19,868 nt of DNA. Source: a virus (taxonomy: Duplodnaviria > Heunggongvirae > Uroviricota > Caudoviricetes). This document shows, in pieces, positions 2,280-19,868 of the stretch (within the stretch, counting starts at the first letter, position 1; each line of letters opens with the position of its first letter). The stretch is from the IMG/VR virus record IMGVR_UViG_3300013102_000006, positions 1 to 19,868 of that record. One strand, 5' to 3'. Under the pieces are notes generated by a model, which saw only the letters and a program-made list of their open reading frames with translations, was not told the DNA's origin and searched no databases. The position numbers and the translations under genes are program-made.

Positions 2280-3401
2280 CTATGGTCCGTTATAAATACT
2301 GAATCCCTTTATGGTTGGTAGCCATATCGAGTTTTCATTTGTAACCTGAAGAGTGGCACCACCTGCAGCATTGGCACCGACTGCTAGAGTCACTGATGTA
2401 CTTGCAGCAACGTCAACAAAATATACCTGGTTGCTTCTTGGCCATGGTGATGATGCATCCACATACATAACAGGGCTTTGAGCTACTCCGTTTACCATCA
2501 GCGTGAGGCTTCCACTACCAGCGCTTATAGATGCCATTATATTAACTTCTAGGAATAGCCTTTCAGGTGTAGCACCGCTTGTGTATGTAAGGCTACAGTT
2601 CGTCACAGTCACGAATGATGCGCTTGTAGTAGTGAACCGAGCACCAGCGGCAGTGAAATTACTATTTATTATCGAAGGTTTAAACTTTTGTGTTGTAACC
2701 GCACCGTCTGCTAGTTTTGCAGTGGTGACATTAGCATCAGCTATTTTAGCAGTAGTAACATTAGCGTTCGTTATGTTCGATGTAGCTACTCCATTAGTGG
2801 CAATATCCGTTGAAACTATAGTGCCATCTGCAATCTTTGCTGAGGTTACAGCCTGGTCTAGGATAGAAGTTGTGGTAACAAAATCTGCAGCAACAGTAGC
2901 TCTTGTTCTTCGGTCAGTTATATTTGCATTAAGAATTGATGTAACTGCGGCATTAACGCGCACATCGGCTAGTATTATATAGGGATTACCAGCGCCTACT
3001 GATGATTGTATTGTCGTTCCGTTTGGGGCAGTAGGAACGGCGTTTGGTGTACCATTCACTACCTTAGCCTTAGCTATGCCAGGATTATTTGGAGGAGAAG
3101 CAGAGGTTGAAGCTGATTTATCAACATATAATACAATCGTATCAATTCTAGGATTAGCAGGGTCTGCAGTAGTAATCGTTATAGGAACACTTGCTGTATT
3201 CCAACCAGTATAAGCATAATCGCTAGTAGGTATACGATAGTCTCCTGTAGCTATGAGTACACTCATTCCTGTAGGAGAGTTCTGAGTAACCGCAAGCCCT
3301 GGCATAACAACCTCACCAGAAAAAGCGACAGCTGGGAACTTGTAGTGCCCCCTTTCATCTGTCTTTCCATTTCCGTCACGGTTGCTAACGTATAAAGTCA
3401 T
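2280..3401 (-). CDS. Tail fibre/receptor-binding protein paralogue 3 (373 aa)
   Basis: The start was reassigned from 3419 to ATG 3401 (MTLYVSNRDGNGKT), which matches the paralogues and overlaps the upstream stop (TAATG). It has about five 10-aa VTTAKIADxx repeats and an unassigned beta-rich C-terminal domain. Confidence 0.8.
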   Translation of the reverse strand: MTLYVSNRDGNGKTDERGHYKFPAVAFSGEVVMPGLAVTQNSPTGMSVLIATGDYRIPTSDYAYTGWNTASVPITITTADPANPRIDTIVLYVDKSASTSASPPNNPGIAKAKVVNGTPNAVPTAPNGTTIQSSVGAGNPYIILADVRVNAAVTSILNANITDRRTRATVAADFVTTTSILDQAVTSAKIADGTIVSTDIATNGVATSNITNANVTTAKIADANVTTAKLADGAVTTQKFKPSIINSNFTAAGARFTTTSASFVTVTNCSLTYTSGATPERLFLEVNIMASISAGSGSLTLMVNGVAQSPVMYVDASSPWPRSNQVYFVDVAASTSVTLAVGANAAGGATLQVTNENSIWLPTIKGFSIYNGP

Positions 3402-4453
3402 TAAGCAGTTCTTCTCCACATATAAACTACTACAGAAGGCTGTATGTTAGTGTGAGATTGGCTATTCCCAGTTGTTCCAGAGGTAAACGATGGTATATCA
3501 ACTGTGTGGGAGTGCGCGCCTGATGGTAATATGAATCCGTTACCAAAGCCATATGCTTGTTGAGGGTTGGCTGGACCAGTACGTCTTGTTGAGTTATCAG
3601 TAAATGCTACATCTCTGTCAAAGTTGTGAGTGTGGCTACCGTTCGTTGATGTACCAGTTGAAGGCGGGTCGATAACGTGAGTGTGGGATGGGATTTGCGC
3701 CTCACTCAATGTTACTGTTTTAGCACCAGGTGTTGCACCTAAAGTCCCGAAGTCAGTATCACCAGTATCAATACCAACCATCACTCGGCCATTACCAAAT
3801 TGAGACCACGTACCGAATCCTAACAATGTAGCTGGATTAGTGTTAACGTTTGCGTTGGTATATATTGAACCAACTGGATAAAGGAGAGGACCGACTGCTT
3901 GTAATAGATTACTAGCCGATAACACGTCAGAACTTATCGTCATAGGCACACGTTGGTCTGAGATATTTGAGTTAGTTATTACACTTGCTGATGCAGGTAC
4001 GGTAACATTTGCAAGAACCATAAACGGATTACCAGCTCCGACAGCTGTTTGTATTGCTGCACTACTTGGAGCAACGGGACTCGAGCTTGCGGTACCGTTC
4101 ACTGCTATAAGCTTAGCAATCCCTGGGTTATTTGGAGGAGAGGCTGAAGTCGTTGCACCCTTGTCGACATATATTGCGATTACTGTTATACGTGGATTAG
4201 ATGTGTCAGCGCTAGTTATTGTTACTGTCGATATAGCGTTAAGCCACCCCATGTATGCGTATTCACCTGGAGCAGTTTCTAGTCTGTAATCGCCAACTTG
4301 CACATCTACACTCATTGCTGGTGTGGAGTGCTGAGTCACTTTAAGACCAGTAGCACCTAAAGTCTGGCCGTCGAGGATATTTGAAAGAAGTCTTAAATGG
4401 CCTTCTTCATTTGTTTTACCGTTGCCGTCACGGTTACTTAAGTACACTGTCAT
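3401..4453 (-). CDS. Tail fibre/baseplate protein paralogue 2 with T4 gp10/gp12-like (collar-type) C-terminal region
   Basis: Shared N-terminal domain but no VTTAK shaft. The C-terminus LYPVGSIY...NPATLLGFGTW...GRVMVG...TVTLSEAQIPSHTH...NIQPSVVVYMWRRTA is a widespread baseplate/short-fibre motif set with repeated HxH. Confidence 0.8.
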   Translation of the reverse strand: MTVYLSNRDGNGKTNEEGHLRLLSNILDGQTLGATGLKVTQHSTPAMSVDVQVGDYRLETAPGEYAYMGWLNAISTVTITSADTSNPRITVIAIYVDKGATTSASPPNNPGIAKLIAVNGTASSSPVAPSSAAIQTAVGAGNPFMVLANVTVPASASVITNSNISDQRVPMTISSDVLSASNLLQAVGPLLYPVGSIYTNANVNTNPATLLGFGTWSQFGNGRVMVGIDTGDTDFGTLGATPGAKTVTLSEAQIPSHTHVIDPPSTGTSTNGSHTHNFDRDVAFTDNSTRRTGPANPQQAYGFGNGFILPSGAHSHTVDIPSFTSGTTGNSQSHTNIQPSVVVYMWRRTA

Positions 4454-4473
4454 TTTTTATTTTTCCTATTGTC

Positions 4474-4491
4474 TCTGTATTTATTATATCA
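4474..4491 (-). promoter_or_regulatory. Extended -10 promoter inside fibre cluster (TGATATAATAAATACAGA)
   Basis: TGn-TATAAT in a 44-nt gap, 17/18 nt identical to the motif upstream of the capsid gene. It is followed by an AGGA RBS before ATG 4453. Confidence 0.65.
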
Positions 4492-4497
4492 ATGTGT

Positions 4498-5556
4498 CTA
4501 TGCTATTCTTCTCACCATTATATTAGGCGTATAAAGAGTCAATGTTCCAGCAGAGCCAACTAAAGCACGTATATCAAATACCATGCTACCAGTCGATGCT
4601 GCAGTGTACCAACAGATAATTGATCTGCCATTCGATATGCCACCAACAGTTATATTTGTTCCCCTCTGGTCGGCAAATGCGGCAGAACCGCCAGCATATA
4701 CCTGAAGGTCTACTTCTGTTGATACGCTGTGTGATACATATGCAGAAGTGAATATAACTTCATACACTCCGCCTGATACTAGCGAGGTAGTTAGGCTAAG
4801 TCCTATGGGAGTTGGCGCGAACGAACCTGGTACAGACGGTGTTTTGTTTACCGCTGAGTTAGTATTCCAATATCCTAGGTTAGGCCAGTCAAGCTTGGTT
4901 GATGTAACAGCTGAAGTGGCAAGCTTGGCGCTAGTGACATTTGCATCTGCAATTTTTGCAGTTGTAACTGCAGAATCTGCAATCTTATTTGTAGAGACAG
5001 CAGAATCTCTTAGAGATTCTGTACGAACTATATTGTCGGCTATATTAAGCTGTGTTCTTCGGTCTGTTATATCTGCGGTGACTATAGATATCGCGGCAGC
5101 ATTTACTCTGACATCGGCTAATATTATATACGGGTTTCCTGCTCCTACTGATGTCTGTATAGCAGTACCATTAGGTGCAACAGGAATAGCCCCAGGCGTT
5201 CCGTCAACTGTTTTCAACTTTATTATTCCAGGATTATTCGGAGGGCTCGCTGAAGTAGATGCACCTTTATCTACATACGCCACTACAGTAGTAATTCTTG
5301 GATTAGATAAGTCTGCTGTCGTGATACTCAAAGTTACATTGGCTGTATTCCAACCAGTATATGAATAGTTAGCACCAGTGTATATCTTGAAATCACCAGG
5401 AAGTACTAGAACGTTCATTGCCGCTGGTGAGTTTTGAGTAACCTGCAGCGAGGTAGAACCTAGTACATCACCAGTAAGTACTTGTGTCTGAAGCCTATAG
5501 TGACCTTCTTCGCTAGTTTTGCCATTGCCATCACGGTTTGATAGATAGACTGTCAT
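4498..5556 (-). CDS. Tail fibre/receptor-binding protein paralogue 1
   Basis: Shared N-terminal domain, AVxTxKIADxx shaft repeats and an unassigned beta-rich C-terminal tip. It overlaps the upstream gene by 4 nt. Confidence 0.8.
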   Translation of the reverse strand: MTVYLSNRDGNGKTSEEGHYRLQTQVLTGDVLGSTSLQVTQNSPAAMNVLVLPGDFKIYTGANYSYTGWNTANVTLSITTADLSNPRITTVVAYVDKGASTSASPPNNPGIIKLKTVDGTPGAIPVAPNGTAIQTSVGAGNPYIILADVRVNAAAISIVTADITDRRTQLNIADNIVRTESLRDSAVSTNKIADSAVTTAKIADANVTSAKLATSAVTSTKLDWPNLGYWNTNSAVNKTPSVPGSFAPTPIGLSLTTSLVSGGVYEVIFTSAYVSHSVSTEVDLQVYAGGSAAFADQRGTNITVGGISNGRSIICWYTAASTGSMVFDIRALVGSAGTLTLYTPNIMVRRIA

Positions 5557-6023
5557 ATATTGTAAATCTCCTCATAGATTACTCGACCTTTATAGGGGCT
5601 CACTGCCCTGAACTTTATACCGAAATAGCTATTAGCCGTCGGAGTGTAGTTTAATTGCTCAACTTGGACGTATACGTATTCAACAAGTGGATCGTCTGCC
5701 TCGGTAGTGGTAACTATCGTAAATCCTGGAGTCAATTGATGTACATCTGTCCTTGATGACTCATTTGGACCACCTATTTTGTCCATGAATATTGCGAAGG
5801 CGTTCGTATACTTGACGCTATTTATTTGATACGTTACTTTCCACATCTTCCTAAAGCTCGAGTCCGCTGTTAGGCCAGTATAGAAAATATCGTATTCATT
5901 AGGCGTATTAGTGTCGCCATGATAAACCTGCCAAGAGTCTCCAGTGAGTTTCTGCTTGGTTTTAAAATCCTGTATGATTACCTCTGCGCTATGTAGAGCA
6001 TCTGTTATGTCGCCATCTCTCAT
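5553..6023 (-). CDS. Small minor tail/baseplate protein (paralogue C)
   Basis: Lies between Tal and the fibres with ATGA overlaps on both sides. It has the N-terminal helix plus FKTKQKLTGDS motif shared with two neighbours. Confidence 0.65.
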   Translation of the reverse strand: MRDGDITDALHSAEVIIQDFKTKQKLTGDSWQVYHGDTNTPNEYDIFYTGLTADSSFRKMWKVTYQINSVKYTNAFAIFMDKIGGPNESSRTDVHQLTPGFTIVTTTEADDPLVEYVYVQVEQLNYTPTANSYFGIKFRAVSPYKGRVIYEEIYNI

Positions 6024-6529
6024 TGTATAAATAGCGTTCCTGTGTACGAATTACTGTTCTGAACTCCAGCTGTTAGCCTACCTGGCTGGGTGGCGAATAC
6101 TTTAATCTTCACTTTCACATTACTCTCGTTACTAGTCGATATATTTATATTCCAAAATAGCTCATTTGACTTTCTTGGTGTTGTAGAGAAGAATGTCCTC
6201 CCTGATGTATTATCAAGTATAGAAACATATGGAGGTGTTCCTGGAGCTGTTTTTCTGTAAGATTCGGTATTTCCATCGAGCGACACATCTGCTACAAGCT
6301 TGGCAAAAGGAGCATCTTGATAGTCTGCTGCATATTTAACCACTATAGTAGTGCTCGTGAGCGAAGACGGGGTTACAGTTATACTTGCATCCCAAGTATT
6401 TGTCGTCTGAATAACATAGCACTTAATAGAATCCCAACCAGTGAACTGAGCGGTTTTAAGATTTGTTGCTTCACGGTATAGATTCTTTACTCTCATAGGT
6501 AGAGAGCCAGTACGTAAGTCGTCTCTCAT
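6020..6529 (-). CDS. Small minor tail/baseplate protein (paralogue B)
   Basis: Position, 4-nt overlaps and the N-terminal LKTAQFTGWDS motif. Confidence 0.65.
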   Translation of the reverse strand: MRDDLRTGSLPMRVKNLYREATNLKTAQFTGWDSIKCYVIQTTNTWDASITVTPSSLTSTTIVVKYAADYQDAPFAKLVADVSLDGNTESYRKTAPGTPPYVSILDNTSGRTFFSTTPRKSNELFWNINISTSNESNVKVKIKVFATQPGRLTAGVQNSNSYTGTLFIQ

Positions 6530-7080
6530 GTTAGTGGTACCACAGTCCCTCTTCCAACGCCATCAACTGGTGATATGAATGGATAATCTAACGTTATTTC
6601 TCCTTCATCAGTAGCATATACATAAAACTTGAGCCAGAGCCTATCTACATCAGTAAATACACCGATTGAAGTTCCAGCATTATTAGTTCCCGCATCTACC
6701 CTGAATCGTACTATCCCGTCGTCCGTGAATAGCGAATCTTGATCTATGTATGTGTCCCACGATACTGAATTTGGCGTAGGCATTGTATTAGTAGGGTTTA
6801 TTTGAGCCTCAATAATTACTTGCGCCCATGGATTTGTCTGGTTTTTAGCTTTAAAAGTAACATAGCCGCGTGCAAGATAAGAAAACCCTCCTAGGAATGG
6901 CTCCTGAAGGCCTATAACGTCAACGGTAGTCGGGCTGCCGTCTGAATTGTGACGTTGTATTACTTTAGGGGTGGTGACGTCTCTTCCAAAGAACTGAGCA
7001 CCCTTTAACTCAACAATATCTTTCTCAGCTCTTGCTATCCTGTCGGCTAGACTAATGTCTCTTTGTGACATGTCAGTCAT
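6526..7080 (-). CDS. Small minor tail/baseplate protein (paralogue A)
   Basis: ATG 7080 overlaps the Tal stop (TAATG) and is preferred over 7086. It has an N-terminal coiled helix LADRIARAEKDIVELKGAQFFGRD. Confidence 0.65.
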   Translation of the reverse strand: MTDMSQRDISLADRIARAEKDIVELKGAQFFGRDVTTPKVIQRHNSDGSPTTVDVIGLQEPFLGGFSYLARGYVTFKAKNQTNPWAQVIIEAQINPTNTMPTPNSVSWDTYIDQDSLFTDDGIVRFRVDAGTNNAGTSIGVFTDVDRLWLKFYVYATDEGEITLDYPFISPVDGVGRGTVVPLT

Positions 7081-9429: not shown

Positions 9430-12400
9430 TATAATTTACCTAATTCCCATGTTAGATTTCTGTTGACTTGGTCCATATCGATATCAGTGTATACTTGGTT
9501 CGTTTGGTTTATCGTTACGCCACTTCCAGCTACTGTCGATGAACCATTATCAAGTACAGAAGGCGCTAATTGTCTAGCGAATGTTTGAGTAGTGTTTACT
9601 GCGAAGTCTGCAGATGTTGTCCCAAGGCTGAATGCATCGGTTATGCTCGATGCGGAGCTTGAGGCGGCATTAACTGCGTCTTTAGTGCTGTCAGCGATAC
9701 CACCAGCAATACCAAGACCAAGCATCTTACCAACTTCATCGCGCATGACTCTTGATGGTGAATGAATACCAAAGAACTTCTTTATAGCATTCAATGCACC
9801 AGATGCAATATCAGTTATTGTCTTGACAACCTGGTCTTTTGCACCATTTATACCTCTTATAAGTCCAGCTATGATATCGCCACCAGCGACAACGAACTTG
9901 CTCAGTGAGTCTGATAGCTGAAGAACTATGTTACCAATTATTGATGCTACTGCTAGTAATATGTTTGGTATTGCTTGAATCATACCAGCAGCTACTCTAA
10001 GAACTATTTGGACACCAGCGCTTAGTATTGAGCCTAGGAATACGTTTATACCGCTTATGATTGCGTTCATAAGGTTACCGACCGCTCCTATGATTTGACC
10101 AAGATTGTCAACCAGTGCTTCAGCTAAAGTCAAGATTATTTGTAGGCCTGCGTCAATAATCATCGGTAAATTATCAATGATTGCGTTTAATATGGCGAGA
10201 GTGATTTCTACTACTGCATCTATTATCAGCGGAAGATTATCTATAATCGCAGTTGTAAGAGCAGTTATGATAAGTACTGCAGCGTTGATGATTAATGGTA
10301 GGTTATCAATTATAGCCTTGATAAGTGTCGTAATAAGAATTACAGTTGCATTAATAATCTCAGGTAAGTTCTGGATAATGCCATTCACTAGACCTTGTAC
10401 AAGTTGTACTGCCGCTGTAATAAGTAGCGGTAATGCGGTTATTATCGCATTAACAAGAGTCATTATGATTTGGACTGCAGCTGGTATAAGTGTAGGTAAG
10501 AACTTAATTAACTGTTCGAATAACCCAGTAATAATTTGTGTAGCAGCAGTAAGTATAGATGGGAGTGCTTTAGTAATACCGTTGATAAGTGCTACGATTA
10601 TTTGCACACCTGCATTTATAAGGTTAGGAATCTCCTTTAGTAGAACGCTTACAAGCTGAGGAATAAGCTTAGTTATTGCATCTACCACAACTGGTAATGC
10701 CTTTACTATTCCATCTACCACTGATTGTATAATCTTTATACCACCATCAATCAACGCTGGAAGACTCTTTATTATTGTCTTTACCAGCTCATCTATAAAT
10801 GTAACCGTGGCTGTGACGAGTTGTGGTATAGCGGTAATGATTGCATTTATTATTGCTTGTATCGCGATAACAATAGAATCGACTATCTTAGGTACGTTCG
10901 TGATTATCGCATCAATAATTCCTTGAGCAAGTGTGATTGCTGCATTGAATATGAGTGGTACGGCCGCAACAATAGTATTAACGAGCTGTATTATTATATT
11001 CGATACAGTTGTTACAAGCTGAGGAATGGCAGCTAATATGCCACTTACGAGCTCGAGCACTACTTGTACACCGACATTTAAGAGTAGTGGAAGGCCTTTT
11101 AGTATAGTGTCAACGATAGTAGCCACAAAAGTACCAAGTTGTTGTATAGCACCAGGCAATGCATCAGCAAATCCCTTTACAACATTAGGGATGTTAGCGA
11201 ATAATTGTTGGAACTGTTGCGCCGCTACACTCGTATCACCTAGTAGGAATAGAAGCGAGCCTAATGCAGCTACTGCAGTAAGTACTGGGCCTCCGAAGTC
11301 ATCGAATATTTGTATTACAGTGTTAAGGCTTCCACCTAATGCTGAGACATAAGTAATAACTGGCGTGAGTACCGCTATGAATGCTAAAGTTGTTATCACC
11401 GCGCTTTGTATGAAGCTAGGTAGCTCGTTAAATGCCTGTATGAGGTCAAATAATACCCCTAGGGCGGCTCCTACTACATTAGCTAAGGTTGTTATCACCT
11501 GGTTCGTAAGGTTCATCAGAGCGACGAATTCTCGTTGCCCTTCGACTGTCTTAAGCCAAGCGTTCATCTCATCAATGATGCCTGATAATGTCTGGATAAG
11601 CGAAACTCCAGCTTGTGATGATGTTTCGAATATAGTAACAAGGAGGCCGACAGTCGAACCTATTAATGAACCAAGAGTTTCAAATGCCTTGATACCAGTA
11701 TTGATAGCGTTGGTAAGCTCTTCTTGACCTTTTGTGCTTGTTGCATATGCGGCAAATAATTGGGACTGCTTAACGACCCATTCAGCGAGCATATTTGTAT
11801 AAGGAAGCCCGACCTCTACAAGGCCCGCAGTAGCTAAGGCAAGTGGCTCTACTGCTTTAGTTAGAGTAGTGGTAGCCTGGGCTGTTGTCTTAAGTGTATC
11901 AGATATAAGCTTCTGGAAGAACGGCTCTTTAGCAACTCGAGCTGCTTCTAGAGCAAGTCCATTCATTGCCTTTGCAGTATCCACCATTCCATCTTTTAGG
12001 ACTGGTAGGATAACAGTAGCAACTTCTTTCATCTGAGTGCCTAAATCTTTGAAGAGAGCTTTTTGTATCTCCTCTTGAATAGGAACGAACTCATCGTATA
12101 CTTCCTTGAACGCCTTAGCTAGTTCTTGTGCTTGAGGAGTAAGTTTTTCTAGGTCTTTTTGGAATAGTTTTTCATTCCCAACGTCGCCAAACGCTTTTCC
12201 TAGTCCACTTACAGCCACCTTAAGTGTACCGAATGCGCCTACTACTGGCGCAATGATACCAGGTGCTGCTAATGCTACCTGACCAGCTGCGGCTAATGCT
12301 CCAGCTAATTCAGTAACAGCACCACCTGCGGCAATGGCAGCAACAACAATAGAGGTCATGTTGAAACCTCTCATAGCTACGCCAAAGTTGCGAACAAGAC

Positions 12401-12590
12401 TGGCAGTTTGAGCCATCTCAGTACGAAATTCACGCAAACCTTTGTTTGCGCCTTTAGTACCATCATTGATGTCTTTGTCTACGGACTTCCCAGTTCTTCT
12501 TGCCTCTTCTCGTACTCGAGTAGTGACGATTTGGAAATCGGTGTCGTTGGCGGTAAGATACCAAGTAATTGTTCCGCCATCAGCGTTCAT
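9429..12590 (-). CDS. Tape measure protein
   Basis: 1053 aa, Ala/Ile/Leu-rich helical, with imperfect ~11/22-aa repeats (e.g. IIDNLPLIINAAVLIITALTTA). It carries the conserved C-terminal FFGIHSPSRVM motif and follows the chaperone genes. Confidence 0.95.
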   Translation of the reverse strand: MNADGGTITWYLTANDTDFQIVTTRVREEARRTGKSVDKDINDGTKGANKGLREFRTEMAQTASLVRNFGVAMRGFNMTSIVVAAIAAGGAVTELAGALAAAGQVALAAPGIIAPVVGAFGTLKVAVSGLGKAFGDVGNEKLFQKDLEKLTPQAQELAKAFKEVYDEFVPIQEEIQKALFKDLGTQMKEVATVILPVLKDGMVDTAKAMNGLALEAARVAKEPFFQKLISDTLKTTAQATTTLTKAVEPLALATAGLVEVGLPYTNMLAEWVVKQSQLFAAYATSTKGQEELTNAINTGIKAFETLGSLIGSTVGLLVTIFETSSQAGVSLIQTLSGIIDEMNAWLKTVEGQREFVALMNLTNQVITTLANVVGAALGVLFDLIQAFNELPSFIQSAVITTLAFIAVLTPVITYVSALGGSLNTVIQIFDDFGGPVLTAVAALGSLLFLLGDTSVAAQQFQQLFANIPNVVKGFADALPGAIQQLGTFVATIVDTILKGLPLLLNVGVQVVLELVSGILAAIPQLVTTVSNIIIQLVNTIVAAVPLIFNAAITLAQGIIDAIITNVPKIVDSIVIAIQAIINAIITAIPQLVTATVTFIDELVKTIIKSLPALIDGGIKIIQSVVDGIVKALPVVVDAITKLIPQLVSVLLKEIPNLINAGVQIIVALINGITKALPSILTAATQIITGLFEQLIKFLPTLIPAAVQIIMTLVNAIITALPLLITAAVQLVQGLVNGIIQNLPEIINATVILITTLIKAIIDNLPLIINAAVLIITALTTAIIDNLPLIIDAVVEITLAILNAIIDNLPMIIDAGLQIILTLAEALVDNLGQIIGAVGNLMNAIISGINVFLGSILSAGVQIVLRVAAGMIQAIPNILLAVASIIGNIVLQLSDSLSKFVVAGGDIIAGLIRGINGAKDQVVKTITDIASGALNAIKKFFGIHSPSRVMRDEVGKMLGLGIAGGIADSTKDAVNAASSSASSITDAFSLGTTSADFAVNTTQTFARQLAPSVLDNGSSTVAGSGVTINQTNQVYTDIDMDQVNRNLTWELGKL

Positions 12591-15644: not shown

Positions 15645-17093
15645 TTAGGATACGTTAGCTGTACCTTGACGGATACCAGCAACCTTGTTGCGGTCTAGGA
15701 ATGCACCACCACGGAAGAATGATCCACGTAGAACCAATTCGTTTCGTTGGTAAGCAGACTTAACAACACCACCATCTTCGTATGAAGCTTGGCTTGAGAT
15801 GTCGTATTGTAGACCACCACTTGTTCGTCCGCGGAACTGAGTAAGGTCAGCGTAGAATACAGCGTGGTTGATTACAACGTTTTGTCCGTTTACTTGTACA
15901 GTAACTGAGTCAGTACCACCTAGTGAAGGTAGAAGATCGTTTGGTACAACAATAAATGGCATACCGAAGATTGTTGGTATTCCACCACCAGTTAGGATTT
16001 CAGCAAGAGGCCCGTTAACACCTGCTCGTAGGGCGCGTGCCTTAAGTTCAGCGAACGTACGTGCGTTGAAGATAAGTGTACCACTTAGAGTAGTGTCAGA
16101 GATTTCAGTAAGGGCTTGTAGCCATACTGTTAGAGCGTTTGCGTCGTTTGATGGTGCGTATGGAACAGAGTTACCAGTTGCATCAACAGCTTGCTCAAGC
16201 TTAGCAATAACAAGTTGTGCACGCTTGCGATCGTAGTCAGTTCGGTACCCTTGAGCAACGTCTTGTAGAAGGTCAACAGCAGCAAAACGAGTTGCAGCAG
16301 TACATACTACTGATACAGCAGCAAGTTCTTCTAGGTCTTCAGTGTGTACAACTGTACCGTATTCACTAATTGGCTTAAGGTTACCATCTTCACCGTCATC
16401 ACAGAATGCAACGTTTTGCATGTTGATGTCACCAACGCGTTCTGTCCATGCGAATGAGATTGAGTCAGTTTCTGTCCAGTTAGTTGCACTTAGAAGCGCT
16501 GTGTAGTCATTACGTACACCAACGATTGTTGTGTAAAGTTCTGGAGAGATAACGAAGTTACCGATGTCAGCAAGAGTCATAGAGTTTCGGTAGATACCCT
16601 TTTCCTTACCTGCTTCAAGGTTTACTTCGTTGATTTGTCGGAGTTCTTCCCAAGCTGGGAGGCTGTTGCCCTTAATGGCGTTCCAAGCAGCTGATACCTG
16701 AGCGTCGTATCGCTCTTCAGAACTCATCTTTGTGTATTTGTTTTCAGTTTTTTCCACTTTTGCGGTCTCTTCTTTTTTGAATTTTGGTGCTTGAGCAGCT
16801 GTATCGAAAGCATTCTTAGCTTCCTCTCGTGCTGACTCAAGTTGCTTGTCAAAATCAGCTTTTAGGCCAGTTGTGACTTCAGCTACAGCATTTTTAACTG
16901 CTTCAGCTAGAGCGTTTTGGTCAACAGTTGGTTGTTCAACCTTTGGTTCTTCAACTTTTGGAGCTTCTTCTACATTAGGAGCTTCGGCAACTGGTTCTTC
17001 AACCTTAACCTCTTCCTTTGGAGCTTCAACTACTGGAGTCTCAACCTTTGGTTCTTCAACAGCAGGTGTTTCTACCTTTTTGTCTTCGTCCAT
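15645..17093 (-). CDS. Putative nested in-frame product: scaffold/delta domain plus major capsid protein (482 aa)
   Basis: In-frame ATG at 17093 (Met377, MDEDKKVETP...) with AGGA 7 nt upstream (17101-17104), exactly at the boundary before the scaffold-like region. Confidence 0.55.
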   Translation of the reverse strand: MDEDKKVETPAVEEPKVETPVVEAPKEEVKVEEPVAEAPNVEEAPKVEEPKVEQPTVDQNALAEAVKNAVAEVTTGLKADFDKQLESAREEAKNAFDTAAQAPKFKKEETAKVEKTENKYTKMSSEERYDAQVSAAWNAIKGNSLPAWEELRQINEVNLEAGKEKGIYRNSMTLADIGNFVISPELYTTIVGVRNDYTALLSATNWTETDSISFAWTERVGDINMQNVAFCDDGEDGNLKPISEYGTVVHTEDLEELAAVSVVCTAATRFAAVDLLQDVAQGYRTDYDRKRAQLVIAKLEQAVDATGNSVPYAPSNDANALTVWLQALTEISDTTLSGTLIFNARTFAELKARALRAGVNGPLAEILTGGGIPTIFGMPFIVVPNDLLPSLGGTDSVTVQVNGQNVVINHAVFYADLTQFRGRTSGGLQYDISSQASYEDGGVVKSAYQRNELVLRGSFFRGGAFLDRNKVAGIRQGTANVS

Positions 17094-18221
17094 TTTGTTT
17101 TCCTGTTTATTTATTTCTACATCATCCTTAGCGACGGAATTCTTCGCAAGAGATGGTGGTGTTTCTTTAAATTTCTTATAGTAAACCTTTATAGCGTTGT
17201 ATATGCCCTGACGTTCAGAATCTGGAACATCTAAACCTCCACGTGCACCGTTAAGTGCCGCCATAGAAGCTGCTACACCTCGCCATACTGCTACTAGTTC
17301 ACCGTCAACGATGTCTGCGAATGGAAGCTTATAAGCTCCAAGCGTACCAGCGTCATCTGGTGTGTAGTAGAAGAATGCTTTACCATATTTTTTAAAGTCC
17401 AATTTGTCATTTTCACCAGTGGCCCAGGCTCGCACCCGTTTTTCTGCCATAGATGAATCCCATTCGCGACTTTTGTCAGCTAGTGGGAGCGTCTTAGATG
17501 CGGGAACTGAGTTCTCGACACTTGTCTCTTGAATTAGTTCGTTGAGTTCTTTAGTAAGAGCGATAGCATTCTCTACTTCTGTGGTATCAACTTTGAGCTT
17601 AACCTGAACGGTTTTCTCGTTTGATTCAAGGGTGTGTACTGCACCTTCAACTTCATTGTTTGTTTTCACTGTGCTAGAATGTTCACCAAGAATAGCTTCT
17701 TCGATTCCATCTATATCTAGCCCGGCTTTTTTCGAACTTTCAAGTGAATTATGTACTAACTGATTAAGGCTAGCGTTATAATTGTTCTGAGTGACTACTT
17801 GGGACAGACCAACGAGTTCTGCATCCCAATAGACACCATTCTCGTCAGGTGGCATACCAATAGTCTCAATCGAGAAGTTTTTGCTAAATCCACCAGTGAG
17901 AAGATCATAGGCTAGTCGCCCAGATGCGCTCTCGTTGATAGCGTAGCGAATCTTATCAATCGTTACTTTGTATCCATCTTTAGTTACACCAATAACTTCA
18001 CCGATTAGATTCTCGAGTTTATCTTCATGGTCGCTTGTTAGCTGATGACCATACTTCGATACATCCATTGAATCTATATCATATCTTGTGCCGTTACGTT
18101 GTAAGGTATTGTCTGTGATAGTAAGCCCACCAGGGAATGATACAACGCCGTCTCCTTCATCTATGAAAGAACTTCGTTCAACTTGTACATTCATTTGGTT
18201 TTTTGCTACTTTGTTTTTCAC
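15645..18221 (-). CDS. Fused prohead protease - accessory domain - scaffold - HK97-fold major capsid protein
   Basis: GTG start with a GAGG RBS. The N-terminal ~150 aa is prohead-protease-like (LTSDHED...IG, FSKNFSIE). An internal ~115-aa domain, a Pro/Glu/Val-rich linker and a coiled coil precede a C-terminal capsid-like region (IPTIFGMPFIVVP, AYQRNELVLRG). Confidence 0.9.
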   Translation of the reverse strand: MKNKVAKNQMNVQVERSSFIDEGDGVVSFPGGLTITDNTLQRNGTRYDIDSMDVSKYGHQLTSDHEDKLENLIGEVIGVTKDGYKVTIDKIRYAINESASGRLAYDLLTGGFSKNFSIETIGMPPDENGVYWDAELVGLSQVVTQNNYNASLNQLVHNSLESSKKAGLDIDGIEEAILGEHSSTVKTNNEVEGAVHTLESNEKTVQVKLKVDTTEVENAIALTKELNELIQETSVENSVPASKTLPLADKSREWDSSMAEKRVRAWATGENDKLDFKKYGKAFFYYTPDDAGTLGAYKLPFADIVDGELVAVWRGVAASMAALNGARGGLDVPDSERQGIYNAIKVYYKKFKETPPSLAKNSVAKDDVEINKQENKMDEDKKVETPAVEEPKVETPVVEAPKEEVKVEEPVAEAPNVEEAPKVEEPKVEQPTVDQNALAEAVKNAVAEVTTGLKADFDKQLESAREEAKNAFDTAAQAPKFKKEETAKVEKTENKYTKMSSEERYDAQVSAAWNAIKGNSLPAWEELRQINEVNLEAGKEKGIYRNSMTLADIGNFVISPELYTTIVGVRNDYTALLSATNWTETDSISFAWTERVGDINMQNVAFCDDGEDGNLKPISEYGTVVHTEDLEELAAVSVVCTAATRFAAVDLLQDVAQGYRTDYDRKRAQLVIAKLEQAVDATGNSVPYAPSNDANALTVWLQALTEISDTTLSGTLIFNARTFAELKARALRAGVNGPLAEILTGGGIPTIFGMPFIVVPNDLLPSLGGTDSVTVQVNGQNVVINHAVFYADLTQFRGRTSGGLQYDISSQASYEDGGVVKSAYQRNELVLRGSFFRGGAFLDRNKVAGIRQGTANVS

Positions 18222-18301
18222 ACAAACCTCATTTGTTTTTAATGTTCGTTTTGTTTTTGAGTATGATACTCTATAGCGCTCTTAAAATAGAATCTTTGGT
18301 A

Positions 18302-18319
18302 TCTGTATTTATTATACCA
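18302..18319 (-). promoter_or_regulatory. Extended -10 promoter for capsid operon (TGGTATAATAAATACAGA)
   Basis: TGn-TATAAT about 80 nt upstream of the capsid GTG and just downstream of a terminator. It is near-identical to 4474-4491. Confidence 0.65.
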
Positions 18320-18373
18320 AAATTGATATTTACAACTTTTATTGTTTGTGTTAGCGTCATATTTATACCAACC

Positions 18374-18394
18374 AAAAAATACCCCGAAGGGCAT
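18374..18394 (-). terminator. Rho-independent terminator ending the ncRNA unit
   Basis: ATGCCC-TTCG-GGGTAT hairpin (UUCG loop) followed by a T run. Confidence 0.8.
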
Positions 18395-18481
18395 TAGTGG
18401 ATAGTTAATGGGTCGCGTCCATTGATGAAGACTGTATTTTTCGCTCTGTGCAAGCATTCAGCAAGCTACTAAAAAGTAAGG

Positions 18482-18653
18482 CTTTTACACTATAATTAGC
18501 CAACAATCGTACGTATCTGATTTAACACTACTAGTATCATAGATTATTAAGTCCTCGGTATTGGCTCATTGCTCCAATCGCTTGAGTGAAATTCAGGACC
18601 CTATAAACGTTCACGACATACCTCTTAATTGCTGACTAATTGTAAAGTAAAAG
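18482..18653 (-). ncRNA. Structured RNA module 4
   Basis: CTTTTAC/GTAAAAG (18653-18647 with 18488-18482) plus AATTAGTCAGCAATT/GATTGTTGGCTAATT (15 bp, 3 G-U). Inner helices are GGTCCT/AGGACT and ATTGG/CCAAT. Confidence 0.6.
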
Positions 18654-18655
18654 AC

Positions 18656-18910
18656 TTGTTAGCTAATATGGTCAGCTAGTAGAAGGCCTCACGTAGTGAG
18701 TTAGCCAAGTGACGCTTCCATTTCATTCCTGCTACTAGCCGTATTGACATGGCCCGAAACTTTAGTTTGCTCGAAAGCATCCTCCTGCAGTTCCTCACGG
18801 ATACCGCTGCCCTTCAATATTTCTGACAATATAAACACGTCACATAGGTGCCTAAATACCGAATGACGTTCCACGGGATTGTGCATTTATATTGCCATAT
18901 TAGCTAACAA
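18656..18910 (-). ncRNA. Structured RNA module 3
   Basis: Perfect 16-bp closing stem TTGTTAGCTAATATGG/CCATATTAGCTAACAA. Three arms (CAATATAAA/TTTATATTG, TATTGA/TCAATA, GCTAGTAG/CTACTAGC) carry TCC-GTGA-GGA and TGCT-TTCG-AGCA hairpins. Confidence 0.7.
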
Positions 18911-18927
18911 TTTCGATTAAAGATACG

Positions 18928-19101
18928 TGGTGGGGGCGGAAGACTTTCACTTCATACTCATAACGAGTGGCGATGTACGGTCACCGTTGGTCATAGCTTG
19001 CCGTTTCGTGACTGCCCCTCGCAGGATGTAATCTCTCAATAGCTACTTGAGAAACCACCCACTACTCACAGCTCTTATTGTTGGCTACCTCACGCACCCC
19101 C
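18928..19101 (-). ncRNA. 174-nt tRNA/tmRNA-like RNA with acceptor stem and encoded CCA (module 2)
   Basis: 5' GGGGGTG pairs with CGCCCCC, followed by A-CCA. It has a T-arm-like GAAG-TGAAAGT-CTTC, GG at positions 13-14 in a stemless D-region, and a flanking 12-bp stem (19116-19105 with 18926-18915). Confidence 0.6.
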
Positions 19102-19120
19102 CAAATATCTTTAATCTTTT

Positions 19121-19306
19121 TAGAACGTATAGTGCCAGCAGCAATATGCTCCCCAAGAGTTAATTAGGCTCCCAGTTTGCCACGAAATAAATCCGAGATG
19201 CTACTAATCACACTGGCGTTTGACATTAGGATTTGAACCTAATTTCTTTCCATGGATTCGCTCGCATTGCCACATATGCTAGTTACTACCAGCATTATAC
19301 GTTCTA
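19121..19306 (-). ncRNA. Structured RNA module 1 containing tRNA-like D-arm and T-arm
   Basis: 24-bp closing helix (19 Watson-Crick, 4 G-U, 1 mismatch). D-arm GCAT-ATGTGGCA-ATGC (19279-19264) and T-arm TTAGG-TTCAAAT-CCTAA (within 19243-19225). Confidence 0.65.
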
Positions 19307-19432
19307 ATGACAGATTAGACTAGGTGACTTATAGCGTGATGTCTTGATACTCTGCATATCGCTAGTCTTTTTTCTATCGTATGAACAATCTATTTTATGT
19401 GCGAAGATTGCCTTGGCTTTCTTATGTTTTAA

Positions 19433-19461
19433 ATTGTAAATCAAAACTATTTTGTAGTCAA
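19433..19461 (-). promoter_or_regulatory. Sigma70-type promoter driving the ncRNA unit
   Basis: TTGACT-17 nt-TACAAT, directly downstream of a terminator. Confidence 0.75.
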
Positions 19462-19468
19462 TAGTTTT
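19443..19468. promoter_or_regulatory. Operator-like inverted repeat overlapping the -35 box
   Basis: AAAACTATT-8 nt-AATAGTTTT. Confidence 0.45.
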
Positions 19469-19478
19469 TTAGAACATT

Positions 19479-19502
19479 AAGAAAAAGCTAGCTATACTAG
19501 CT
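19479..19502 (-). terminator. Intrinsic terminator after the upstream ORF
   Basis: AGCTAG-TATAG-CTAGCT hairpin followed by TTTTCTT. Confidence 0.55.
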
Positions 19503-19566
19503 GTCACGGCAACCGGTGTGTAATGGACGAGCATCCATATGGCCGTAAATCGCCAGTTACTTAGTG

Positions 19567-19868
19567 TTAACTACCGACGCCCAGTAGTGTAAGATTGTGT
19601 GCCGTACTGCCGCCACCGCCAGCAAGGTATTGTAGTTCTGTGGTCTTGGTAATCCAAGAGACAGATGCCGAAAGTGTTTGGTTGTTAAAGCTATACGATG
19701 AAAGTGGTGTATTACTATCGAATATACAGTTGTCATCAGAGCCTGTCTTATACTCGGTAACAAGTGTCATACTCGTAGGTGGGTGTGACCCGATATTACC
19801 TGTAATACCTTTGCCTGTTGCAGTGATAATTACCCAGTCGTTGCCTGGACTTGCATATGTCACAATAC
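19567..19868 (-). CDS. Hypothetical protein, 5'-truncated by window edge
   Basis: The frame is open to the window end (the listed start at 19863 is a GTG with an in-frame sense codon upstream). It is Ser/Thr/Gly-rich, and a terminator follows. Confidence 0.6.
   Translation of the reverse strand, partial: IVTYASPGNDWVIITATGKGITGNIGSHPPTSMTLVTEYKTGSDDNCIFDSNTPLSSYSFNNQTLSASVSWITKTTELQYLAGGGGSTAHNLTLLGVGS

Follow-up and report, generated by a model that had tools for sequence, protein, structure and literature searches.

What does an uncultured tailed phage transcribe from the stretch of roughly 1 kb that lies between its gene for a 214-residue protein (ending at 19567) and the gene for its 858-residue head protein (18221–15645)? 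The locus belongs to the virus record IMGVR_UViG_3300013102_000006 (Caudoviricetes), and the window, that is, the whole stretch of 19,868 nucleotides (nt) that was analysed, is the first 19.9 kb of a complete genome of 84,762 bp with direct terminal repeats and 41% G+C. All genes of the window lie on the minus strand, as do all features for which window coordinates are given below. A preliminary description had seen here four tandem structured RNAs, each closed by its own stem, like beads on a string. The unit proves to be a genuine new family of structured noncoding RNA (ncRNA), modular and restricted to one clade, and the earlier anatomy was right but incomplete: there are four modules, but the fourth is a conserved 3′ domain that, together with a conserved 5′ domain, flanks interchangeable ones. 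For comparison, the loci of relatives (designated L with a number) were gathered from IMG/VR, Joint Genome Institute metagenomes, ENA and Logan assemblies with the capsid protein as an anchor; the comparison excludes about ten further close capsid relatives (P0004, P0010–P0015, P0019–P0021 and P0024).

Focusing first on the boundaries of the unit, a signal scan of the minus strand found both the consensus-like promoter and the UUCG terminator that had been said to bracket the region, and found no internal promoter-like or terminator-like sites between them. The promoter (19433–19461) is of the sigma-70 type, TTGACT-17-TACAAT, with 10 of 12 consensus matches, and alignments show its form TGTTGACT...TACAAT to be kept in the units of the relatives. 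The intrinsic terminator (18372–18395, with the hairpin at 18395–18378) reads AAUGCCC-UUCG-GGGUAUU, with a UUCG tetraloop, followed by a U tract; in L002 an A–U pair takes the place of the G–U pair of the window, and a strong terminator closes the RNA unit in every member of the family. Open reading frames (ORFs) of 61 and 72 residues are present in the region, one of which reads through the terminator, and the longest sense ORF within the unit (61 residues, 18886–18701) has a stop at codon 8 in an alignment reading of L041, the nearest full relative. None of the small ORFs of the unit matched Pfam or PHROG, and the earlier statement that there is no credible ORF therefore stands. Judged by these signals, the unit is predicted to be a transcription-competent promoter-to-terminator segment of about 1.03 kb without a conserved ORF.

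The four stem-closed modules, with linkers of 4, 4 and 2 nt, were reproduced when the 1059-nt transcript was folded to its minimum free energy without constraints, and their closing arms are the four longest inverted repeats in the region. Module 1 (19121–19306) has 25-nt arms (19307–19283 and 19144–19120) that form a closing helix of about 25 bp with four G–U pairs, inside which lies a canonical T-arm identical in 18 of 19 nt to the T-arm of the tRNA-Arg(UCU) of the same phage. Module 2 (18915–19116) has 24-nt arms (19116–19093 and 18938–18915), a 12-bp closing helix that runs on into a G-rich helix, and an interior that is unique to the window phage. Module 3 (18656–18910) is closed by perfect 16-nt arms (18910–18895 and 18671–18656), giving a perfect 16-bp helix around a multi-branch core, and module 4 (18482–18653), with 30-nt arms (18657–18628 and 18507–18478), consists of a long bulged closing rod and a conserved core with the elements GGUAUGUC.CGAAC, AGGGCUU, AAGCUUAAAAAUCU and AGUAG.GU.AAAU. 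The four long closing helices of the preliminary description thus hold, although their lengths are to be corrected to about 25, 12(+7), 16 and 7+3+15 bp for modules 1–4. Its near-complete tiling needs a similar amendment: the modules span about 815 of the approximately 1030 transcribed nt, but a 5′ domain and a 3′ tail had been overlooked. The 5′ domain (19306–19428) comprises a hairpin (19422–19405), a GCAC(A/C)UAAAA spacer and a three-way junction, m0 (19378–19309), of about 55 nt that bears the conserved loop UUACGCUAUAAG; the tail of 86 nt (18396–18481) is kept only in the nearest relatives, namely L002, L041 and partly L045. There is no self-similarity between the modules and, except for the T-arm, none to the rest of the genome. 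A UAGUAG motif, with four copies in the unit of the window, showed no enrichment in the cassettes of the relatives and was dropped.

Selection acts on these helices as RNA. Folded alone, modules 1–4 are more stable than their dinucleotide shuffles, with z-scores of −3.1, −4.0, −4.9 and −3.5, respectively. The minus strand, which is the RNA strand, is more stable than the plus strand, with −305 versus −265 kcal/mol overall and a difference of 8–15 kcal/mol per module. A hand count on the inverted-repeat arms of module 1 gave 20 Watson–Crick pairs, four G–U pairs and one mismatch on the RNA strand, where each G–U pair becomes A–C on the other strand. It is this strand asymmetry, together with the G–U pairs and the compensatory changes found in relatives, that places selection on RNA structure and not on DNA palindromes, as had been argued from the sequence of the window.

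The compensatory changes come from a homologous unit present in 13 loci (the window, L002, L003, L004, L041, L042, L043, L045, L047, L048, L049, L050 and L053), all with a capsid protein at least about 71% identical to that of the window. Covariation among homologues, which the preliminary description had named among the checks on its stems, was seen in module 4, the 5′ domain and module 3. An all-versus-all comparison of the cassettes shows that the shared blocks are the first 120–140 nt or so and module 4, and that the middle is common to very close pairs only. In an alignment of 12 sequences of module 4, consensus pairing by RNAalifold predicts 33 pairs, 26 of which show compensatory double changes; 92.9% of the cells pair, compared with 32–41% when the partner columns are slid by 1–3 positions, and none of 500 shuffles reaches any of five measures. 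The covariance model built on this alignment (R1) reaches 171.7 bits on the minus strand but 19.3 bits on the plus strand of the window, recovers a divergent module 4 in L053 (41.7 bits), and has no match in 1.27 Mb of other DNA, which includes the remainder of the genome with the rsr-linked Y RNAs. For the 5′ domain the automatic consensus of RNAalifold was poor, and a three-way junction proposed by hand was used for the pair counts; its pairs are formed in 85.7% of the cells, as against 18–45% when the partners are slid. The corresponding model (R2), built from ten loci, scores 121.7 bits in the window and 78–118 bits in nine relatives, which are matches by construction because the same loci built the model, and it matches nowhere beyond these ten among the loci scanned. 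Module 3 could be aligned in three sequences (the window, L002 and L041), where seven of its 80 predicted pairs show compensatory changes.

Between the conserved ends, the closely related units differ in a manner that resembles the replacement of whole domains. In L041, the capsid protein of which is 93% identical to that of the window, the promoter, 5′ domain, modules 3 and 4, tail and terminator align at 70–83%, and modules 1 and 2 can likewise be aligned in their closing stems, which carry compensatory changes, whereas what these stems enclose is unrelated, at 18–35% identity; L041 also carries one additional module of the module 1 type. An inner helix, YURGUAGYAAG/CUURCUAYYAG, closes five different interiors of 104–227 nt, one in the window, two in L041 and one each in L047 and L048. 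In L002, with 99% identity of the capsid gene at the DNA level, modules 3 and 4 are kept and the sequence 5′ of module 3 differs. Two hairpin tips of module 3 absorb insertions of 18–60 nt across the window, L002 and L041. A clean replacement is found between L043 and L049, which have a variable module in common that differs at one hairpin tip only, and at this tip L049 carries an acceptor-less tRNA body (Rfam tRNA model, 52.2 bits, model positions 6–65). This body (L049, 2461–2520, plus strand of that locus) has a D-arm, an anticodon arm (UUG) and a T-arm, and the same spot in L043 is occupied by an unrelated 47-nt hairpin. Since stems are kept around interiors that are unrelated, the interiors can be read from these alignments as exchangeable or fast-evolving payloads on conserved stems.

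The unit is also distributed as an accessory element would be. It is not near the capsid gene in L051, L052 and L054, although these are similarly close capsid relatives, and it was not found in about 40 more distant capsid relatives (42–59% identity). The earlier placement in front of the capsid operon is true of the window but is not obligatory: in L042, L045 and L048 the unit is parted from the capsid gene by a gene for a protein of 368–605 residues, and in L053 it lies farther upstream. In L040 (IMGVR_UViG_3300033475_000014, 3001–6642) the 214-residue upstream gene is 95% identical, yet there is no RNA unit; the genes downstream in L040 are entirely different (130, 206, 354 and 145 residues), with the mosaic junction exactly at the intergenic site of the unit. 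Own transcription signals, a position between conserved structural genes, patchy presence and variable neighbours therefore mark the unit as an accessory insert with the classical layout of a moron. As in the morons of tailed phages, a promoter and a terminator of its own accompany an insert amid the head-region genes that is patchy among close relatives and varies in its neighbours; unlike in those morons, the payload is a large structured RNA and not a protein gene. Beyond the relatives, blastn against 50,697 phage records gave no match to the unit, tblastn of the capsid protein gave low-complexity matches only and no cultured relative, and a search of IMG/VR and GTDB genomes with two loosely defined DNA patterns of module 4 gave new matches that were all attributable to chance when judged by R1, including a cluster of matches in one metagenome-assembled genome of Rhodospirillaceae. 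The RNA family is confined to one clade of uncultured phages of about 85 kb with many tRNA genes.

No known family accounts for the unit, in agreement with the earlier failure to match it by eye. Rfam 15 was scanned over the whole genome, the window included, and over 14 loci of relatives, both at the gathering threshold and at an expectation value (E) of up to 10. No family, GOLLD, ROOL, OLE, raiA and tmRNA included, was credible in the unit: none reached the gathering threshold, and at E ≤ 10 the region 18200–19600 had only chance matches of 13–18 bits to unrelated families. Over all of the DNA scanned, only true tRNAs and two acceptor-less tRNA bodies were found, and the loci of the relatives contributed nothing apart from the tRNA body of L049. 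Neither ARAGORN nor the Rfam models at E ≤ 10 detected a tRNA or tmRNA in the unit, and relaxed ARAGORN settings allowing introns and permuted tmRNAs returned only noise. A tmRNA-like reading of module 2 was accordingly rejected, and its acceptor-like GGGGGUG/CGCCCCC-ACCA is not retained in the counterpart in L041. A retron msr–msd was likewise discarded, as no reverse transcriptase (RVT_1) match occurs in the complete 84.8-kb genome.

Pairing between the ends of the transcript bears on whether it acts as one RNA or as several. In L004, L048, L043 and L049 the nucleotides immediately 5′ of the three-way junction form a 6-bp helix with those immediately 5′ of module 4, and this helix covaries as CUGAGG/CCUCAG, CUGAAG/CUUCAG and CCGAAG/CUUCGG, with a predicted probability of 0.05–1.0. 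The 5′ leader can pair with the tail instead, through UUGUUC/GAGCGA in the window and UUUCAU/AUGAAA in L041, with compensatory changes and low probability (0.1–0.7; 0.1–0.2), and such pairing would enclose every domain in a single multi-helix junction with purine-rich linkers of 2–4 nt. On the thin evidence of the long-range helix, a single folded RNA is favoured, at least for the core, and we lean slightly towards the core as one piece rather than cut.

On balance, we consider it somewhat more probable than not that the unit is moron-like and makes an ncRNA, about 1.03 kb long, that functions as RNA, in which a core platform carries variable domains that serve as mimics or sponges. In this proposal a strong promoter and terminator amid the structural genes would yield the transcript; the 5′ domain, with its hairpin and three-way junction, and the conserved 3′ domain of about 160 nt (module 4) would define the family; and stem-closed domains, three of them in the window phage (modules 1–3), would be inserted, duplicated and exchanged between these ends. 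The conserved ends point to a shared partner or to an assembly, and would form the working core as a binding or assembly platform. The variable and sometimes tRNA-like domains suggest mimicry, and could be fast-evolving RNA shapes that are offered as mimics or sponges to RNA-binding proteins of the host or the phage. Such a role would suit a phage that is heavily invested in tRNA and RNA-repair functions; its gene content, with 24 tRNA genes called by ARAGORN at 73–78 kb of the genome, Ro60 with Y RNAs, and RNA repair, points to a conflict over the integrity of tRNA and other RNA. Roles as a decoy or in the virion, which the preliminary description had entertained, are speculation.

Several observations weigh against this proposal. 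The evidence for mimics or sponges consists of the tRNA body of one relative, the T-arm of module 1 and the gene content of the phage, and the remaining interiors resemble nothing known in the family-model scans. Since homologues of what modules 1 and 2 enclose are lacking, support for the folds inside them comes only from thermodynamics. In L042 and L045 module 4 is present without a recognizable 5′ domain, and the two core domains are therefore not strictly coupled. Finally, the predicted probability of the long-range helix is only 0.05–0.12 in some members.

The strongest competitor, which we regard as possible though rather unlikely, is that the transcript is a polycistronic precursor in which RNase III of the host cuts the closing duplexes to release at least four stable small RNAs of about 170–255 nt that act independently. 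The closing helices indeed exceed what closing a domain needs: those of modules 1 and 4 each have about 25 bp, bulged in module 4, and are plausible substrates of the enzyme, and that of module 3 has a perfect 16 bp. The linkers are just 2–4 nt long, single modules have been gained, lost or swapped, and the uncoupled module 4 of L042 and L045 also fits. Measured against a duplex of at least 20 bp (about two turns), modules 1 and 4 reach this length, module 3 is borderline and module 2, with 12 bp, falls short; the phage genome contains no RNase III gene. Moreover, the covarying helix of the short cassettes encloses the 5′ domain and the variable domain and abuts module 4, which has the look of a single fold, and the sequences of module 4 P1 and of the module 1-type inner helix are conserved, which is not required of RNase III substrates. 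The rRNA operons and the tRNA and stable-RNA clusters of phage T4 likewise place tandem structured RNAs with leader–trailer duplexes and very short spacers behind one promoter; they differ in that no canonical tRNAs and no evident RNase P or RNase Z sites are found here, and in that the long-range helix suggests a joint fold.

A more elaborate version of the platform, which seems to us improbable, would make the unit an RNA cassette array, where the 5′ domain and module 4 bear domains exchanged by recombination at the conserved closing helices, and where these domains would be private, rapidly evolving mimics, tRNA-like ones included, that titrate or mislead RNA-targeting immunity or RNA-processing enzymes of the host. 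If true, the array would parallel, at the level of RNA, the hypervariable islands of anti-defence genes.

Self-assembly in the manner of GOLLD or ROOL, with the end domains oligomerizing into an RNA-only particle and the middle serving as cargo or linker, as proposed for the linkers of GOLLD, is by analogy conceivable but doubtful. In GOLLD the 3′ region is conserved and the 5′ region less so, and a variable linker holds phage tRNAs in some cases (PMC12286853); the layout found here is alike, with conservation at the ends, variation in the middle and, in one member, a tRNA body. The likeness extends to a large, elaborately folded ncRNA with its own transcription signals and many long rigid helices in a phage rich in tRNA genes. 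In contrast, the covariance models of GOLLD and ROOL do not detect the unit even at E ≤ 10, conservation covers much shorter stretches (about 280 nt altogether), conserved loops with self-complementarity were not identified, the middle consists of stem-closed domains with 2–4-nt linkers instead of an unstructured linker, and the unit lies among head genes instead of in the tRNA island. Membership of GOLLD is excluded because the model searches were negative, and GOLLD is still the closest analogue in layout.

Acting in cis as a leader, either through a 5′ domain that modifies RNA polymerase or as a regulatory 5′ untranslated region (UTR) for read-through into the capsid operon, is very unlikely. 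The put RNAs of phage HK022 act on RNA polymerase, and the unit resembles them in having a conserved structured element immediately 3′ of a strong promoter, on the same strand as, and upstream of, a head–tail operon of about 18 kb. A strong terminator nevertheless ends the unit in every member, the capsid gene has a conserved promoter and 5′ UTR of its own (see below), the unit of L042, L045, L048 and L053 is set apart from the capsid gene by other genes or by its position, and 0.3–1 kb of variable domains would be needless for a leader.

Also very unlikely, and in our estimate a little less credible than the leader, is the view that the modules are additional Y RNA-like partners of the Ro60 protein (Rsr) of the phage itself. 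The genome does encode Ro60 (rsr, at about 61.3–62.7 kb) with two stem-closed, tRNA-like Y RNAs, one of which matches the Rfam tRNA model at positions 5–66, and the acceptor-less tRNA body of L049 and the T-arm of module 1 recall them, as do a long terminal closing stem, a tRNA-like body without a free acceptor end, and the possibility, with Y RNAs of the YrlA type, of a tandem arrangement behind one promoter. The Rsr-binding motif, GNCGAA(N0–1)G, lies near the 5′ end of the Y RNA stem (Chen et al., PMC4201824). This motif is missing from the unit, where even GNCGA occurs 0 times compared with 3.2 expected from shuffles; rsr is about 42 kb away from the unit (at 18.4–19.4 kb), and no Ro60 match was found in the IMG/VR fragments of four relatives, including the 61-kb contig of L003 (69% complete), which bears the 5′ domain and module 4. 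It is because of these three points that a Y RNA role is unlikely. The modules are also larger (170–255 nt) than Y RNAs (80–140 nt), modules 2–4 lack the T/AS/D arrangement, and R1 finds no similarity between the unit and the Y RNAs of the phage. As regards tRNA-like arms, module 1 has a T-arm and a variable module of L049 a full tRNA body, and the conserved domains have none.

A DNA-level element (terminal repeats of the miniature inverted-repeat transposable element type, an origin or a packaging site) or coding for small proteins, although suggested by long inverted repeats around variable interiors and by the 61- and 72-residue ORFs, is hardly credible at all, since every arm is single-copy in the 85-kb genome and has no further copy among the 50,697 phage records, pairing is strand-specific with G–U pairs, the compensatory double changes maintain a complementarity that terminal repeats bound by a transposase would not require, and the ORFs are not conserved, with one reading through the terminator; transposon terminal repeats were accordingly discarded.

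The moron-like unit with conserved ends and variable domains adds an RNA class with an unusually clear modular logic, in which two small conserved domains hold exchangeable closed domains between them. To our knowledge, few RNAs are as poorly understood as the large structured ones of phages, such as GOLLD and ROOL, of which only a handful of classes have been described. Here, close relatives supply natural 'domain-swap experiments', the models R1 and R2 can be used for collecting further members, and the presence of Ro60 with Y RNAs, a tRNA-repair kit and at least 24 tRNAs makes a link to a tRNA-centred conflict between host and phage testable.

Among the neighbouring features, an intrinsic terminator of the upstream 214-residue gene (19486–19502) shields the RNA unit from upstream transcription. 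Downstream, the head gene (15645–18221), which served as the anchor of the search for relatives, encodes an HK97-type capsid in its C-terminal part, and the relatives of its product carry the HK97 capsid domain PF05065. The 858-residue protein appears to be a fusion, with a conserved, protease-like N-terminal segment of about 170 residues with a DHED motif, followed by a low-complexity linker rich in E, K, P and V, the length of which is very variable (the relatives have 686–750 residues in total), and then by the HK97-type domain. Between the unit and this gene (18222–18371), the sequence contains a conserved extended −10 promoter, TGGTATAAT, and a 5′ UTR. The latter, of about 110 nt, is highly conserved as AGAUACCAA..GAUUCUAU..GAGCG..GAGUAUCA..AAACGAACAUUAAAA..GAGGU in L041, L043 and L047–L050; the capsid promoter and 5′ UTR are kept in all relatives, even those without the RNA unit, and the 5′ UTR may be a translational or stability element. 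A 154-residue gene resembling HNH/NUMOD3 homing endonucleases lies amid the head–tail connector genes in L050 (7012–7476) and L052 (7010–7474) and is absent from the window phage.

Elsewhere in the genome, another large ncRNA locus at 31.7–32.35 kb (L012, about 11800–12480, minus strand) has the same type of promoter, TTGACT-17-TACAAT, and a T-arm-like hairpin, and shows no sequence similarity to the unit. The tRNA island contains ORF-free stretches of 450–700 nt at 72.7–73.4, 74.7–75.4 and 76.4–76.85 kb in which ARAGORN calls no tRNA, and these may hold further odd tRNAs or ncRNAs.

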